From Eubacteriales bacterium (lineage in GTDB: Bacteria > Bacillota > Clostridia > Oscillospirales > CAG-272), in contig JAZNHT010000022.1 of assembly GCA_045577175.1 (NCBI GenBank), positions 481 to 64,480 on the forward strand: DNA of 64,000 bases, written 5' to 3'. Below are positions 5,375 to 33,981 of this stretch, in pieces. The notes beneath the pieces are model-generated. The model saw only the letters and a program-made list of their open reading frames with translations, was not told the DNA's origin and made no database searches. Position 1 is the stretch's first letter. Every line of letters begins with the position of its first letter. Made by a program: the position numbers and the translations under genes.

Positions 5375-6463
5375 ATGGATACTATGAGTAAAAAAATCAG
5401 AGCCGGTATCGTCGGCGCCACGGGTATGGTCGGTCAGCGTTTTATCACGCTTTTGCAGGATCACCCCTATTTCACCCTGACAGCCCTCGCCGCAAGCGCA
5501 CGCTCCGCAGGCCGCCCCTATGAGGAGGCTGTCGCAGGCCGCTGGAAAATGGCTACTCCCATGCCGGAGGACGTCGCGAAGATGACCGTCATCGACGCCG
5601 CTGACATCGAGGCAATGAAGGAGAAGGTCGACTTCGTCTTCTGCGCAGTCGATATGAAGAAGCCCGACATCCTCGCGCTGGAGGAAGCATACGCAAAAGC
5701 AGAGATCCCCGTCGTTTCCAACAACTCCGCAAACCGCTGGACGGACGATGTTCCGATGGTCATCCCGGAGATCAACGACATCCACACGAACGTCATCAAG
5801 AGCCAGAGAGCACGCCTCGGCACCAAGCGCGGCTTCATCGCCGTCAAGCCGAACTGCTCCATCCAGGCATACGTTGCCGCTTTGACGCCGCTTCGCAAGT
5901 ACGGCATCAAGGAAGTCGTTGCGACAACCTATCAGGCAATCAGCGGTGCCGGCAAGACGTTCAACGAGTGGCCCGAGATGGTTGACAACCTGATCCCGTT
6001 CATCTCCGGCGAGGAGGAAAAGAGCGAGAAGGAACCGCTCAAGATCTGGGGCGAGGAGAAAGACGGCGTGATCGTGACCGCAAAGGCGCCGCTTATCACC
6101 ACGCAGTGCCTGCGCGTGCCTGTCACTGACGGTCACACCTGTGCCGTTTTCGTGAACTTCGAGAACAAGCCGACCAAGGAGCAGATCCTGGCTGAGTGGA
6201 AAGCATTCCGCGGCGCACCGCAGCTGCTCGGTCTGCCGCACGCACCCGAACAGTTCATCACCTATTTTGAGGAAGAGAACCGCCCGCAGGCGCGCCTCGA
6301 CCGCGACATCTACGGCGGTATGGGCGTCACCCTCGGCCGTCTCAGAGAGGATACTTTGTTCGATTACAAGTTTGTCGGACTTGCGCACAACACCCTCCGC
6401 GGTGCCGCAGGCGGTGCCGTTCTGACTGCAGAGCTACTCTACCGTCAGGGCTATCTGGACTAA
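5375..6463 (+). CDS. asd: Aspartate-semialdehyde dehydrogenase
   Basis: GIVGATGMVGQRF, KPNCS (catalytic Cys), RVPVTDGH and HNTLRGAAGG. Confidence 0.95.
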   Translation: MDTMSKKIRAGIVGATGMVGQRFITLLQDHPYFTLTALAASARSAGRPYEEAVAGRWKMATPMPEDVAKMTVIDAADIEAMKEKVDFVFCAVDMKKPDILALEEAYAKAEIPVVSNNSANRWTDDVPMVIPEINDIHTNVIKSQRARLGTKRGFIAVKPNCSIQAYVAALTPLRKYGIKEVVATTYQAISGAGKTFNEWPEMVDNLIPFISGEEEKSEKEPLKIWGEEKDGVIVTAKAPLITTQCLRVPVTDGHTCAVFVNFENKPTKEQILAEWKAFRGAPQLLGLPHAPEQFITYFEEENRPQARLDRDIYGGMGVTLGRLREDTLFDYKFVGLAHNTLRGAAGGAVLTAELLYRQGYLD

Positions 6464-25002: not shown

Positions 25003-25154
25003 CAGACGGGGGACTTGGGTATCTGCGATAAAAAGCTCCTATAACGAAACAAGTCCCCCCAAATATCTTCCAAACGGAAATAACAAACGTAACGCAAAGG
25101 AACTTGTGACAAAATTACCACAAGTTCCTTTTGAAATACTAACAGGGAATAGAC

Positions 25155-25281
25155 AAAGCCTCCCTTGTGTAAAGGGAGGTGGCTCGCGTAGCGAGACGGA
25201 GGGATTGTGAAAAGCAAGCTTTTATCGTCATACAATCCCTCAGTCACCTTCGGTGACAGCTCCCTTTACACAAGGGAGCCT
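25155..25281. repeat. Composite REP-like element, family A-related
   Basis: GCCTCCCTTGTGTAAAGGGAGGTGGC...CAGTCACCTTCGGTGACAGCTCCCTTTACACAAGGGAGCC inverted pair. Confidence 0.75.
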
Positions 25282-25739: not shown

Positions 25740-26186
25740 ATGAAAAAAGCATTATTGACAATTCTTTTAATCTGTGTATTGCTTGCTTCTCTTGTGGCTT
25801 GCGGTACAAAAAGCTCCGAAGCCCCTGATAGCGAAGAGCAGATCAGCGTTGACAGCATAGTAGAGCTTTTTGAAAAGGACTACAATGCTCAAAAATACAC
25901 CGCAGAGCAGATATCGAATTTGATTCCGAATCTTGAAGCGAACGGTATTTCCCTTAACGGAAGCATTACGGCGGTAATTCATCTGACCAAAAAAGCATCC
26001 GAACCCGGGCGTTCTGATTGGTCCTGGGCGTACGTCTACGAATTCACAGAGGAAGCGGATGCCATCGCACTTGAAAACAACCGCCGCGCATTCGTTGAAG
26101 CTACCGAAGAAAACGGCGCGTGCATTCGTTGCGGTTGTATAGTCGTGTTTGGCTCCTCTCCAATAATAGCTTCCATTGAGCAATAA
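25740..26186 (+). CDS. Hypothetical lipoprotein
   Basis: MKKALLTILLICVLLASLVAC signal peptide with lipobox; AAGGAG RBS. Confidence 0.82.
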   Translation: MKKALLTILLICVLLASLVACGTKSSEAPDSEEQISVDSIVELFEKDYNAQKYTAEQISNLIPNLEANGISLNGSITAVIHLTKKASEPGRSDWSWAYVYEFTEEADAIALENNRRAFVEATEENGACIRCGCIVVFGSSPIIASIEQ

Positions 26187-26286
26187 ATACTATTATTGAA
26201 AGTAGCTTTCAAGCGATTCAGATGCGATCCTTGGACAGGGATATGAAATAATGGAAAGGGGGACTTGCGTCCCCCTATTTTTTACG

Positions 26287-28083
26287 TTACTTTTCAGTTT
26301 TTACATAATTGATTTTCCGCATACGGTTTATCAGTGCAAAAAGTTCCTGCTTACGCGGCAGATCCAGAAACCGTTCTGTAGTTGTAAAATAGGAAGAATA
26401 CAAAATATCCATTCCCTCTTCAGCGATTCTTTCATAAAGTTCGTCAACCTTTCTCCGAAGATCAATTACACGGTCTTTATTGGAAATTTCCAAATACCGC
26501 AGCATAAAGCCGAGTGCATCAAACTGCCGTTTAGATACAACATCATGCAGTCCGCGCACGTCGATCTGCTCATCCCCGATCAGGATAAATCCCATATCGG
26601 ACACCGCAAGCATTTCGCTTCCGCTCCCTTCGGGGTAAGAAGAAAAGCGATCACTGTACAGTGTTCGTCTTTGCCCCCACACGGCAGGTATAGGAATCTC
26701 CGTTTTTATTCCGTAAGCAGAGCAGATATGTTTCGATTCTTCCGTTACGTCACGGATCAGGTACTCTTCCATCATGTAAATCTTGTCAGCGACGGATAAG
26801 TACTCACCGCTTCCGCCGATTACAAGAATCGTTGAAACCCCACGCGTGCGGTACAGTTCCCCCACCCGATCCGTAAACGGTGTGATCGGCTCTTTTACGA
26901 TCAGTTCTTTCATCATACGGTCACGGATCATAAAGTTCGTAGCACTTCTATCTTCGTCTATCAGTAAAAGAGAGGCTCCTCCGTCCACTGCTTCCATAAT
27001 ATTTGCCGCTTGCGAGGTGGATCCCGATGCATGATCCGTAGAGAAATCCTCCGTATCCCCACCGGGCAGCCACTTGATAAAGGGCGAAATATTGACTCGC
27101 TTTACACTCCGCCCGTCCTCCGCCGAAATACTGACCGCACTTTCATCTGTGATGCAAAGTTCGCGTCCGTCACCGAGAACGTGATCGTAGATACCCGCAG
27201 AGATAGCGTCCAACAGTGTTGACTTCCCCGAATATCCACCGCCCGTAATAACCGTGACACCTTTTTTGATACCCATTCCGCGCACGCCGCAGATTTCGAT
27301 CTCGTCATCCGGTGCAGACTTAAACGGAATCGCCTCCATCATCGGCAGATCCGTTCCCTTGGCTCGCGGAAGGATGCTTCCGTTAGCGATAAAGACGCAA
27401 TAATCGCTTTCTTTCAGCCACCTACGAATCACTGCCTGCTTTTCGGCAAGTGTGAGCACCTGTTTCATTCGGATAAAATCAAACTCTGCAACGAACCGCT
27501 CCACCGCCTCGGGCAAATCTCGGCATAACATTTGAATCGTTTTTCGAATCTTCCGTTTCGGCAGCTGCACCTGCATTCTGATACACAAACACATCTTCGG
27601 TGACGGACGTTCACCATCCGGCATCAGATATACGGTCGTCCCTCCGCCGTATTCGTAGTCTCTCTGAGGACACACGGAGAAATATGCGGTATTTCTGACA
27701 AGCACCTCGCCGCCCGGTGCGTACAGATAATACTTTCCGTTTTCGTTGTCGGGCCGGGACCGGTTGTATAAATCGACGTTCAATTCGTCGACATATCTCT
27801 TGAACTCTCTGAGACAGAAATCCGCAGCGGCGGCTGTATAGACATCCATCCCCAGCTGCTCCACGGGGATTTTTACCGTTACCGTTGGCTTATCCTGTGC
27901 CAGTTTGTGCGTTCCCGTAATTTCAAAGCCTATATCCCCGCTGTAATAGGTCGGATCGCAGTCCGACATAGGCGGTACACCCGGACGGGCAGGATCAAGA
28001 TATACAATGCTGCCATTGTACATTTCCTCGTAAGTATGCGTATACGGCTCCATGCTGAGCAGTTTCTTTTTCAGACGTTTCAC
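26287..28083 (-). CDS. ABC-class P-loop ATPase, COG3044/ABC_ATPase-like
   Basis: FIANGSILPR, Walker A GGGYSGKST, ASGSTSQAAN, Walker B LLLIDEDRSATNFMIRD and EPITPF; GTG start 7 nt after GGAGG. Confidence 0.85.
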   Translation of the reverse strand: MKRLKKKLLSMEPYTHTYEEMYNGSIVYLDPARPGVPPMSDCDPTYYSGDIGFEITGTHKLAQDKPTVTVKIPVEQLGMDVYTAAAADFCLREFKRYVDELNVDLYNRSRPDNENGKYYLYAPGGEVLVRNTAYFSVCPQRDYEYGGGTTVYLMPDGERPSPKMCLCIRMQVQLPKRKIRKTIQMLCRDLPEAVERFVAEFDFIRMKQVLTLAEKQAVIRRWLKESDYCVFIANGSILPRAKGTDLPMMEAIPFKSAPDDEIEICGVRGMGIKKGVTVITGGGYSGKSTLLDAISAGIYDHVLGDGRELCITDESAVSISAEDGRSVKRVNISPFIKWLPGGDTEDFSTDHASGSTSQAANIMEAVDGGASLLLIDEDRSATNFMIRDRMMKELIVKEPITPFTDRVGELYRTRGVSTILVIGGSGEYLSVADKIYMMEEYLIRDVTEESKHICSAYGIKTEIPIPAVWGQRRTLYSDRFSSYPEGSGSEMLAVSDMGFILIGDEQIDVRGLHDVVSKRQFDALGFMLRYLEISNKDRVIDLRRKVDELYERIAEEGMDILYSSYFTTTERFLDLPRKQELFALINRMRKINYVKTEK

Positions 28084-28114
28084 AAGCATTCCTCCTTTTG
28101 CTGTACGCGGTGCT

Positions 28115-28338
28115 AAAAAACAAAAGCACCCCTTTGGGTGCAAAAAAACAAATCCTGTAAAACAAAAAACACACCCTTTCGGATGTGCATCCAATCTGCA
28201 AACAGAAATCGATCAAAAAGTCATTCCGTCGGCGAAGACGACAACATCCGAATCCTATACGCTTGTCATACCAATCGCCTCCTTATCAGAATGATTTTTG
28301 TTTTTTTACAGTATACCACGGATTCACAGTCTTGTCAA
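28115..28338 (-). promoter_or_regulatory. Promoter and attenuator leader with 4-codon uORF (MTSV) and two tandem terminators
   Basis: TTGACA(28338-28333)-17-TATACT(28315-28310); AAGGAGG then ATG ACA AGC GTA TAG (28269-28255); hairpin plus U tracts at 28188-28164 and 28141-28115. Confidence 0.75.
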
Positions 28339-28372
28339 TATGTAAAAGGGAGAGGCAGACTCCCCCTTTTCC

Positions 28373-29062
28373 CTATTCCTCTCCCCGAATCTGCGTCCGC
28401 AGAGCGTGCAGCGCGTCGGACAACCCGCCCACGCCGTCGATCAGCCCGATCTCCACCGCCTTCTGCCCGTCGATGATCGAGCCGACATCGGTGGCAATTT
28501 CGTCCGTGCGCAAAAGCAATCGGCGAAACTCTTCCTCCGACACGCCCGAATGTGCCGTCACAAACCGCACGATTCTGTCCTGCATCCGTTCAAAATAATA
28601 GTACGTCTGCGGCACGCCGACGACTGTCCCACTCATCCGCACGGGATGGATCGTCATCGTCGCCGACGGGACGATAAACGACCGTTTCGCGGACACCGCC
28701 AGCGGCACCCCGATCGAATGACCACCGCCGAGCACCAACGACACCGTCGGCTTCGTCATGCTCGCGATCATCTCCGCAAGCGCGAGCCCTGCCTCCACGT
28801 CGCCGCCCATCGTGTTGAGCAGAATCAAAACGCCGTCAATCTCGTCGCTCTCCTCCATCGATACAAGCATCGGAATCAGATGCTCGTACTTCGTCGCCTT
28901 CTGATCCGTCGGCAGGATATAATGCCCCTCGATCTGCCCGATGATCGTCAAGCTCTGGATCGTCTCGCAGTCCTTCTTCGCTACGACCGATCCGCTTTTG
29001 ATAATTCCCTCCAGCTTGTCCTCTTCGTCGCTCAGACCGTCTTTCTTTTCCTCGTCGCTCAT
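28373..29062 (-). CDS. tepA: ClpP-like protein TepA
   Basis: IIGQIEGH..TKYEHLIP, LNTMGGDVEAGLA, LGGGHSIGVPLAVS and TMTIHPVR. Confidence 0.88.
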   Translation of the reverse strand: MSDEEKKDGLSDEEDKLEGIIKSGSVVAKKDCETIQSLTIIGQIEGHYILPTDQKATKYEHLIPMLVSMEESDEIDGVLILLNTMGGDVEAGLALAEMIASMTKPTVSLVLGGGHSIGVPLAVSAKRSFIVPSATMTIHPVRMSGTVVGVPQTYYYFERMQDRIVRFVTAHSGVSEEEFRRLLLRTDEIATDVGSIIDGQKAVEIGLIDGVGGLSDALHALRTQIRGEE

Positions 29063-29439
29063 GTTGCATCCCCCATTCTTTTTTCGGTAGTATGGGCTTT
29101 TGCACCGTTTTGTATGCATTTTCGGCAGGTGCATAATTCCGCAGCGTTTTCGACACTCGCTTAAAACACACACAATCGGGCGAACAGCCAAGGAGAAGGA
29201 GTGGGGTTTGGGGCGAGGGAGAAACTTCGGCGGTGTAGGGGTTCCCCGAAATGAGCGAAGCGAGTTTTGGGGGTTCCCTGTGTTGGTTCTCCCTCGCCCC
29301 ATTTTCACATCTTTTTTCGCAGAAATTCTCGATTTTCCTTGATTTACGGCGCGAAATGCGCTATAATAAATATGTACGGGCATTTTCCGACGAATCTGCC
29401 TCGTCCGAAGTGATTATTTTTACAAAGGAGTATATTTCT

Positions 29440-32169: not shown

Positions 32170-33981
32170 ATGGACAAACACGAGCTGAAAGCGGTTGTCC
32201 TCCGCGCGCAAAGCGGAGACAGCCACGCCATCGAAGAGCTGTATACGGCATTTTACGAAAGCGTTTTCTATTTCGCCAAGAAAACGTTGCGGGATGAGAA
32301 TCTGGCATACGATATTACGCAGGATACCTTTTTGGAGGTCATCCGCACCATAGACTGTCTGGAGGCTCCCGAGGCATTCGCCGTCTGGATCCGCCGGATC
32401 ACGCTCCATCAGTGCACCCGGCATTTCAAAAAGAAAAAGGATGTCCTTCTGGAGGAGGATGCAGACGGACACACCATTCTTGATACCATGGAGGATGACG
32501 ACGAAGGCTCTCTCCCCGCCGAGGTGTGTGAAAAGGAGGAGTTCCGTTCTACCATTCTCTCGATTGTGGATACGCTGAGCGAAGAACAGCGCGCCGCCGT
32601 GCTTCTTTACTACTATGATGAGCTCCCCATCCAAAAAATCGCCGAGATGCAGGGAGTATCCGAGGGCACCGTCAAAAGCCGTCTGAACTATGCGCGCAAG
32701 GCTATCCGCAAAGGCGTGGAGCAGTACGAAGCCAAAACAGGCACCAAGCTGCACGGCGTCCCGTTCTTGCCGCTCGTCCGTATCTTTTTCAACAATCCCG
32801 AGCCTATGTCCTCCGCCCGGGCTGCCGCTTTGGGCAAAACGATCTCTGCGGCGGCCGGCACCGTTGCCGCAGGTGCCGCTTCGGTCGGGATCGCGGCAAA
32901 AATCGTCGCCATCCCACTGGGCGCAAAGATCGTATCTCTCATTCTGGCTGTCGCCATCACCGTGGGAATCTGCGTTACCGTTGTGACCGTATCCAAGGAC
33001 GCTCCCACGGGCAGTGCAGAAATTGAAAGCACTGTCGCCGAGGCAGATACGTTTGAAGCGACCCCCGATACGGACGCTTCCGTACCCGAGACCGACATGC
33101 CCGAGACCGACGCGCCCGAGACCGACGTGCCCGAGACCGACGTGCCCGAGACCGACGTACCCGAGACCGACGCGCCCGAGACCGACGTACCCGAGACCGA
33201 CGCGCCCGAGACCGACGTGGCGAAAGACACCTCCTCGCTTGATGAAAACTCGTCACAAGTGCTCCCAACCTGTCTCAGCACACACGTTGCCCCCACACTT
33301 TCGATCGAAGACGACATTCTGACGATCCGAAACAACTCCTGGGAATTTGAAGAAAGCAACATTGCAAGAACTGCCTACCACATATTTGTGGATGGAAATC
33401 TGCTCTATGTTTGGAACGAATCCATCGGTATGCTGTGCGACTCTGTTGTCATAACAGACACATTCCGACTCCCCTTGATGCACTATTCCGCCACCGACCC
33501 TCTGGGCGCACACACAATTACCGTACAGCCGGCATGTGTTCAATACGATGCTGAACATTCCGTATTCTGCAATCACATTTATAATAACGGTACGGACGGC
33601 TTGTCAGAAAGCATTGAATATACCCGTTCGGTAGCGGCGCTGTATTACCCGGATGACGAAGATTTCTCCGTTCCGTATTACTGTGAACATGCATCGATTT
33701 CTATCAAGATAATTCCGCAGCACGGTCACGGTCGCCGCTGCGACAATTGCTCGCTGATGTCCGATATAGAGCTCTGTAAAGATGACGATTTCAACAGCAT
33801 CTGCGATGTCTGCGAAACTTGTATGCACCTGTACAGAGAAGTGACAAACGAAGCTATAGACGGGGTGCTGCACCACGCCTACCGCTGTACAAATTGCCAT
33901 ACTGACGGCTTGAGCGAAGAGCGTTGCTATGACGACGACTACGACGGTGCCTGCGATATATGCGATCAAAGACTGGAATGA
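32170..33981 (+). CDS. ECF sigma-70 factor fused to a TM helix, repeat stalk and Cys-rich C-terminal domain
   Basis: Region 2 (DITQDTFLEV..FAVWIRRI), region 4 (LSEEQRAAVLLYYY..EGTVKSRLNYAR), TM IVSLILAVAITVGICVTVVTV, PETD repeats and CxxC clusters. Confidence 0.85.
   Translation: MDKHELKAVVLRAQSGDSHAIEELYTAFYESVFYFAKKTLRDENLAYDITQDTFLEVIRTIDCLEAPEAFAVWIRRITLHQCTRHFKKKKDVLLEEDADGHTILDTMEDDDEGSLPAEVCEKEEFRSTILSIVDTLSEEQRAAVLLYYYDELPIQKIAEMQGVSEGTVKSRLNYARKAIRKGVEQYEAKTGTKLHGVPFLPLVRIFFNNPEPMSSARAAALGKTISAAAGTVAAGAASVGIAAKIVAIPLGAKIVSLILAVAITVGICVTVVTVSKDAPTGSAEIESTVAEADTFEATPDTDASVPETDMPETDAPETDVPETDVPETDVPETDAPETDVPETDAPETDVAKDTSSLDENSSQVLPTCLSTHVAPTLSIEDDILTIRNNSWEFEESNIARTAYHIFVDGNLLYVWNESIGMLCDSVVITDTFRLPLMHYSATDPLGAHTITVQPACVQYDAEHSVFCNHIYNNGTDGLSESIEYTRSVAALYYPDDEDFSVPYYCEHASISIKIIPQHGHGRRCDNCSLMSDIELCKDDDFNSICDVCETCMHLYREVTNEAIDGVLHHAYRCTNCHTDGLSEERCYDDDYDGACDICDQRLE
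33085..33219 (+). repeat. 15-bp coding tandem repeat x9 (PETD[V/A/M])
   Basis: CCCGAGACCGACRYR repeated nine times. Confidence 0.95.

Follow-up and report, generated by a model that had tools for sequence, protein, structure and literature searches.

The stretch of 64,000 nucleotides (nt) analysed here (the window; Eubacteriales bacterium, assembly GCA_045577175.1, contig JAZNHT010000022.1) carries on its minus strand a gene for an ABC-class ATPase of the PF09818/COG3044 family, to which the trypanosome protein MRB1590 is related, and the 220 nt between its promoter and its coding region form a leader that is very probably a ribosome-dependent transcription attenuator. The leader would act through mutually exclusive helices in the RNA, arranged around a small upstream open reading frame (uORF), and would be ON when a ribosome arrests at uORF codons 1–3. 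On balance, we favour a reading in which this attenuator is induced by early ribosome arrest, following the logic of vmlR and cplR, and controls an RNA-remodelling ATPase. That the leader senses drugs causing such arrest is a likely component of this reading; given such sensing, the chances that the ATPase acts on RNA or the ribosome during the resulting stress are about even. The folding switch at codons 1–3, a relay from the first to the second of two terminators, and the presence of the leader before Lsa-type ABC-F genes are new in this analysis. The elements of the leader and the gene that it precedes are as follows (SD, Shine–Dalgarno sequence; ORF, open reading frame; aa, amino acids).

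28310..28338, minus strand: promoter of the sigma70/sigmaA type (TTGACA at 28338-28333, 17 nt, TG-extended TATACT at 28315-28310)
28289..28299, minus strand: 5' strand of a basal stem, pairing with 28226-28216 at 10/11 positions; conservation not shown
28284-28274, minus strand: uORF SD, AAGGAGGCGAT, doubling as the 5' strand of the anti-antiterminator (SD:anti-SD) helix
28269-28255, minus strand: uORF, ATG ACA AGC GTA TAG (MTSV*), which likely arose by a nonsense change in an 18-codon frame
28252-28244, minus strand: antiterminator, TTCGGATGT, exact reverse complement of ACATCCGAA at 28186-28178
~28242-28235, minus strand: anti-SD strand, partner of the uORF SD when the fold is OFF
28163..28188, minus strand: terminator 1 (28188-28169 and U tract), its 5' arm pairing with the antiterminator
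28176-28170, minus strand: 3' arm of terminator 1, able to pair with the 5' arm of terminator 2
28116..28141, minus strand: terminator 2 (28141-28126 and U tract), sited before the GTG start
28097-28091, minus strand: main SD, preceding the GTG start at 28083
26287..28083, minus strand: ATPase ORF with GTG start, 598 aa, intact, PF09818 and PF21117

Much of this architecture had been recognized in a first-pass annotation, and it stands: the consensus promoter (score 11/12, the top site of the region), the SD with the four-codon MTSV frame, and the second terminator are all present as described, and the exact 9-nt complementarity between the antiterminator and ACATCCGAA, the 5' arm and loop of terminator 1, is confirmed and arises in 461 of 200,000 shuffles. 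The 5' stem that was said to enclose the uORF can indeed pair, but its conservation is at the shuffle level (8.1 versus 7.3 expected pairs); the conserved helix with a predicted repressing role is the SD:anti-SD helix (28284-28274 with ~28242-28235), which the annotation had left out, together with an in-frame TGA at 28215-28213. The leader folds with a z of −4.29, none of 200 shuffles being as stable, and the SD of the main gene is weakly paired in the minimum free energy structure. A strict whole-genome scan for the leader architecture returned three candidates, including the ATPase leader; by eye, the other two are a metabolite-riboswitch-like leader before an S-adenosylmethionine-synthetase-like ORF, and a tRNA. 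No Rfam riboswitch, T-box or leader family matches the leader at the gathering threshold, the sole match in the window being a tRNA elsewhere, and no second copy of the leader was found in the genome by blastn or by the covariance model described below (R1), whose three other matches there are gene-end hairpins.

The leader is conserved among relatives of the ATPase. From 98 confirmed relatives, 80 loci were taken for leader analysis, and R1 was built from 34 leaders; it may miss distant leaders. R1 matches upstream of the ATPase gene in 71 of the 80 loci, 33 of these 71 being training rows; of the nine misses, seven lack upstream DNA altogether and two offer <260 nt of it; among the matches, one precedes an upstream paralog and three are clipped by contig ends. 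Leaders of the same plan, but of different letters, precede paralogs that are only 30–39% identical, and the R1 leader is absent from all 30 of the 30 canonical-family PF09818 loci. Promoter-like sites of a similar kind are visible 5' of many homolog leaders, and the columns of the uORF SD core and start codon are invariant or nearly so. In a close-relative alignment not fitted to the helices under test, 86.6% of cells are paired in the SD:anti-SD helix and 94.5% in the antiterminator helix. Covariation among homologs, which the annotation had named as a check, is apparent in fitted alignments. On one such alignment, both sides have changed at 6/7 pairs of the SD:anti-SD helix. On the wider alignment, which was fitted to the OFF helices but not to the antiterminator:terminator helix and which includes eight weak rows, 89.7% of cells of the latter helix are paired and 7/9 of its pairs have changed on both sides, a result reached in 0/500 shuffles. 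A G–U pair that favours both helix swaps is retained in terminator 1 of 31/34 leaders.

Beyond these loci, a loose DNA pattern was found in 5 of 401 genomes of the class; the four matches besides the window lack a start codon at the expected position and were taken as chance. One true leader, again preceding an ATPase, was identified among 80 listed pattern loci in metagenomes, and none of 36 pattern loci in viral contigs passed the leader model. In one subclade (L028, L029, L085 and relatives), a conserved short SD-led frame lies between terminator 2 and the ATPase start, which it overlaps, suggesting possible translational coupling; it is absent in the window.

The constraints on the uORF concern its length and spacing. 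After removal of near-duplicates and two false regular-expression picks (L058 and L072, also left out of the 59-leader counts below), the non-redundant set comprises 39 leaders, in 34 of which the uORF spans 16–19 codons, as compared with 2/39 in the +2 control frame. Early stops are avoided: a stop before codon 16 is seen in only one leader, the window's, versus 59% of shuffles, and this is likewise the only leader (1/39) with a four-codon uORF. The antiterminator core starts 18–21 nt after the A of the start codon in 33/39 leaders and occurs in all three uORF frames (20, 14 and 5 leaders), so that the uORF peptides differ between leaders; they vary with the frame, and no conserved arrest motif such as RLR is found in them. 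Since uORFs of 16–19 codons occur in any frame, it is the spacing that is conserved and not the peptide.

In the window, a uORF whose TAG was read as sense would run for 18 codons, up to the TGA at 28215-28213. Because MTSV is the sole early stop among the leaders and the old codon-18 stop survives, MTSV is most likely a recent nonsense variant of this frame; its likeness to the MIN and MRI uORFs of vmlR and cplR would thus lie in logic and not in length. The analogy with 3–4-codon uORF attenuators drawn in the annotation does not hold for the leader family, nor does it for hflXr, which had been placed among them and whose uORF is given as 14 codons with an RLR motif in the portion of its report cited here (PMC6310831). 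Read-through of the uORF TAG was set aside, since the upstream gene also ends in TAG. The MTSV allele provides a natural experiment on uORF length.

We infer translation of the uORF, and the switching itself, from these constraints and from folding models in which the ribosome footprint sizes are assumed values. In co-transcriptional folding, with transcripts cut at the terminator 1 loop, the antiterminator captures the terminator arm in 38/39 leaders when a ribosome is placed on the start codon, and is mostly unpaired in 30/39 when there is none; shuffled controls give 52/390. A codon-by-codon footprint scan is ON at codons 1–2 (38/39 leaders) and codon 3 (25/39), and OFF at codons 5–12. The window's allele switches at equilibrium too, with terminator probabilities of 1.00, 0.06 and 1.00. 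Of 59 leaders, 45 have terminator 2, and each of these 45 allows it to pair with the 3' arm of terminator 1; in the window, the probability of this pairing goes from 0.00 to 1.00, and two leaders with an A in the 3' arm (at the G–U site) show, by eye, a matching change in terminator 2.

The mechanism that we propose is as follows. Without a ribosome, the SD would pair with the anti-SD, the antiterminator would be kept in the loop, and terminator 1 would form. If a ribosome were arrested on the start codon or immediately beyond it, it would open the SD helix, reaching only to about +15 (the cited part of PMC9226507 reports a 30S toeprint at +16 on the vmlR uORF); the antiterminator, at +18 to +27 and beginning just past the footprint of a ribosome placed on the start codon, would then capture the nascent 5' arm of terminator 1, and the freed 3' arm would capture the 5' arm of terminator 2, such that both terminators would be disarmed by one event. 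Elongation beyond codon 3 would bring the ribosome over the antiterminator, and terminator 1 would again form. The uORF peptide would not be the sensor. The likeliest inducers would be drugs that arrest ribosomes right after initiation, namely pleuromutilins, lincosamides and streptogramin A, and the MRB1590-family ATPase would remodel RNA or ribosome complexes during the early arrest.

The best clue to the inducer comes from other genes that share the leader. A search of 151 genomes of the bacterial family with the RNA model only gave 28 matches in 24 genomes, and the downstream ORFs are 17 ATPases of the same family, three ABC exporters, two XRE genes (one after an ATPase remnant) and two Lsa-type ABC-F genes; a further two matches lie at contig ends and two are plain terminators. 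Lsa confers protection from lincosamides, pleuromutilins and streptogramin A. One of the Lsa-type genes scores 762 bits, over the curated cut-off of 750 (NF000167), and starts 62 nt after a longer leader subtype (47.6 bits); the other scores 703 bits against the same cut-off and is separated by 461 nt from a near-typical leader (92.6 bits). According to PMC10201436, drugs acting just after initiation are likely to stall short uORFs that precede ABC-F genes of this kind, and the sharing therefore points to the inducer; it bears on regulation and not on the activity of the ATPase. The annotation's attenuator reading is thus well supported by conservation, covariation and folding, and gains outside support from the Lsa-type loci.

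Several further arrangements were seen in this survey. Seven Lsa-type genes (L364, L366, L367, L370, L371, L372, L374) have promoter-proximal uORFs of ~3–6 codons with hairpins, apparently classical short-uORF attenuators (some judged by eye). A weaker leader of similar plan, with a 32-codon uORF and a long SD:anti-SD helix, precedes an RtcB-family RNA ligase and then a membrane transporter-like gene (L290 / L357:2293-3700). At L114 / L358:3673-4091 and L349 / L359, the leader is followed by only an N-terminal remnant of the ATPase, or directly by an XRE gene, which suggests deletion of the ATPase with the switch left behind. Additionally, L060 and L070 carry a different promoter–SD–uORF–hairpin leader (~5800-6050) between the ATPase and a downstream ABC exporter.

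The ATPase itself matches PF09818 (335 bits, E 3e-100) and PF21117 (MRB1590_C; 52.8 bits), both over the cut-off, whereas ABC_N is only weak (20.6 bits, below 26.5). Walker A lies at residue 281 and Walker B at 373; among 28 aligned sequences, the GKST and DED columns are invariant and the signature-like SGSTS nearly so. An AlphaFold model (mean predicted local distance difference test score, pLDDT, 77) returned 5d6a/MRB1590 at Foldseek ranks 1–5 with template-modelling (TM) scores of 0.71–0.74, the next matches being ≤0.26, and the structural identity is ~29%; 5d6a and Trypanosoma brucei MRB1590 are the only sequence relatives with solved structures. The cited portions of the literature describe MRB1590, which the annotation had also named as an RNA binder, as dimeric, with Arg199/Arg200 lining its RNA-binding pore (PMC4538832), and report that KRBP72 (MRB1590), by its ATPase activity, lets editing pass an mRNA stem-loop (PMC11754742). 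The pore loop LPGHGRRID (Arg199-Arg200) aligns here with LPKRKIRK, four residues shorter, yet basic. With a single P-loop domain and no NCBIfam family at E 1e-5, the protein is, as judged from its domains, not an ABC-F. A ribosome- or RNA-directed protective job is plausible; the ATPase may be a resistance or rescue factor, as the annotation had it.

Of 151 genomes sampled across the phylum, 45 carry PF09818, and the window's ATPase falls within a separate, divergent gut-clostridial clade of 77 rows (SH-aLRT, the Shimodaira–Hasegawa-like approximate likelihood ratio test, 99; quick tree). It is patchy within the genus (6/13 other genomes; 13/61 overall), its surroundings vary, and no close plasmid copy was found among 17 plasmid records (best 43% identity). 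The commonest neighbours of the ATPase loci are small HTH_3 genes, which form a cluster present in 21 loci, and ABC exporters, present in 13. Many relatives have a tandem in-frame copy of the first ~85–90 residues, each with its own SD-like sequence and start codon; ~22/80 loci were flagged (L003, L004, L005, L009, L024, L043, L065, L067, L075, L076, L078, L090-L092, L099 and others), with proteins of ~690 and ~775 aa, and the window's gene has one copy. A second, highly divergent PF09818 paralog (30–33% identity, altered Walker A) stands in tandem downstream at L030, L037, L046, L049, L051 and L025 and upstream at L099, usually with its own promoter and leader and often with a small XRE gene between. 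Our literature search, which excluded supplements and some relevant surveys, found no described bacterial function of PF09818/COG3044 and no account of the leader; two hits turned out to be ordinary transporters.

In the window, the ATPase unit is monocistronic, flanked by terminator-like hairpins:

28349..28366, minus strand: terminator-like hairpin 3' of the upstream ClpP-like gene, isolating the ATPase unit
26258..26275: gene-end hairpin common to the ATPase gene and the convergent ORF 25740-26186

The upstream gene (28373-29059, minus strand) encodes a ClpP-like protein (PF00574), and the convergent ORF (25740-26186, plus strand) a 148-aa lipoprotein-like product without a Pfam match. The G+C content of the ATPase gene is 49%, as against 54% for the genome and 58–63% for the neighbouring clpP-like and upstream ATPase genes. 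Elsewhere in the window, short repeats at 25150-25280 and 29190-29290 recur at many sites of the genome, and a 603-aa ORF (32170-33981, plus strand) resembles, by eye, an extracytoplasmic function (ECF) sigma-factor domain joined by a membrane segment to a PETD-repeat region.

A number of observations weigh against induction by early arrest as we picture it. The OFF state of the elongating ribosome follows by construction of the folding model, given the assumed footprints. Equilibrium folding mostly failed as a general test of the switch: only 10 of 56 parsed leaders (3/59 were unparsed) give up the terminator when a ribosome occupies the start, versus 22/560 controls, and, as so few leaders switch at equilibrium, capture by the antiterminator would have to be kinetic. 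In the close-relative alignment, covariation of the antiterminator helix is thin (five double-change cells; 8/500 shuffles). In these genomes, the sequence of the terminator hairpin is also widely used as a gene-end terminator, and the relay pairing could therefore be a by-product. Only 2 of 15 Lsa-type loci carry the ATPase-type leader, the other 13 having other leaders or none, and the second of the two has its 461-nt gap and a possible promoter of its own. On the protein side, a shorter Lys/Arg loop stands in place of MRB1590's Arg-Arg RNA-binding loop, and no recognized ribosome-protection gene was found among the clustered or Pfam-scanned neighbours (30 scanned) of the 80 ATPase loci. Further points concern the far end of the uORF: arrest at the start explains incompletely both the avoidance of early stops and a second ON window, from codon 14 to the stop, in 26/39 leaders. 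These would suit a leader whose signal is a ribosome that stays at the uORF end because termination or recycling is slow. Such a ribosome would sit over the anti-SD, with the antiterminator to its rear pairing with terminator 1 in front; on this view, the ATPase would serve in recycling or splitting, and the MTSV allele would have lost or changed its input. The uORF length held across three frames and the ON fold with the P site on the last codon agree with this. The helix must, however, close around the bound ribosome with ~9 nt and 16 nt of slack (medians), which the folding program ignores; the early ON window is the more general (38/39); and the window's allele retains all of the RNA elements, even though the antiterminator is covered when a ribosome stands at this allele's stop. 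The length of the uORFs is also accounted for by the need to cover the antiterminator while terminator 1 is being made, and by stopping short of terminator 1, and we regard sensing at the uORF end as quite unlikely.

The switch might instead work as proposed while the ATPase is not a ribosome factor; it would then assist ABC exporters or XRE regulators induced along with it, or act in the repair or turnover of RNA. The HTH_3 and exporter neighbours, the exporters fronted by the leader and the weaker leader before the RtcB-family ligase all lean this way, whereas the window's gene has no companion between its flanking terminators, an exporter is missing from most homolog loci, and a solved relative binds RNA in its dimer pore (PMC4538832, in the cited part); we consider such a role unlikely. 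Alternatively, the leader could read a natural block of early translation (cold, starvation, shortage of initiator tRNA, RNA damage) or feedback from the ATPase activity, with antibiotics incidental. The absence of peptide specificity in the uORF fits such a trigger, vmlR is reported to be induced by general translation defects too (PMC9226507, in the cited part), and the gene is patchy yet without a close plasmid copy; the same leader nevertheless fronts Lsa-type and exporter genes, and a natural trigger seems distinctly improbable. Least credible, with a very small chance of being correct, is a leader switched by an RNA-binding protein or ligand, with the SD and ATG incidental: direct autoregulation is conceivable for a family that binds RNA, but it sits badly with the near-invariant SD core and start codon, the constrained frame length, a spacing that fits the ribosome footprint, and the lack of an Rfam match. 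Early-arrest induction of an RNA-remodelling ATPase remains our preferred reading. A much bolder extension of it is doubtful: the gut-clostridial MRB1590-type ATPases would be drug-inducible factors for ribosome rescue or protection, of a new class unrelated to ABC-F, TetM or HflX. They would clear or remodel early-translation complexes that have arrested, by means of the RNA-threading dimer pore familiar from editing in trypanosomes, and would be controlled by a portable stall sensor that is independent of the peptide, has a two-terminator relay and is exchanged between ATPase, exporter and Lsa genes. Were this so, gut Clostridia would possess an inducible factor for translation protection that has gone unrecognized and is absent from resistance databases. 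The leader shared with Lsa-type resistance genes provides a concrete hypothesis for a widespread, structurally solved family that lacks a described bacterial function, and the leader would itself be an uncatalogued RNA family with, as proposed, peptide-free sensing and a double-terminator relay.

Among characterized attenuators, the closest in plan are those of vmlR (Bacillus subtilis, uORF MIN; PMC9226507) and cplR (Clostridioides difficile, uORF MRI; PMC10201436). As in the cited portions of those reports, a promoter is followed by the SD and start codon of a leader frame, the uORF lies inside an anti-antiterminator hairpin, the antiterminator is exclusive with an intrinsic terminator, and induction by arrest right after initiation is, here, predicted. 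In contrast to their 3–4-codon consensus uORFs, the present leader family has no conserved short consensus: its uORFs of 16–19 codons encode no conserved peptide and run through the antiterminator and anti-SD. The leader further differs in its second terminator with a predicted relay and in a target that is not an ABC-F. It resembles rli80-hflXr of Listeria in having a longer uORF that overlaps regulatory helices, with premature termination relieved by stalling, whereas rli80 is described, in the cited part of PMC6310831, as encoding a 14-aa peptide with RLR, and the ATPase leaders have no conserved motif and vary in frame. The ATPase shares its three-part fold, Walker A and B and family motifs with MRB1590/KRBP72 of T. 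brucei (PDB codes: 4yix, 4yiy, 4yj1) and with 5d6a of Vibrio vulnificus, from which it differs in belonging to a divergent clade, in its shorter pore loop and in the tandem N-terminal copy (~87 residues) of many relatives. The canonical Bacillota members of PF09818, unlike the window's clade, do not carry this leader. Finally, the antibiotic-resistance (ARE) ABC-F proteins of the Lsa family (NF000167), a group marked by two tandem ABC domains with a linker, are set apart from the window's ATPase, which has one ATPase domain and no NCBIfam match; yet this leader precedes two Lsa-type genes within the same bacterial family.

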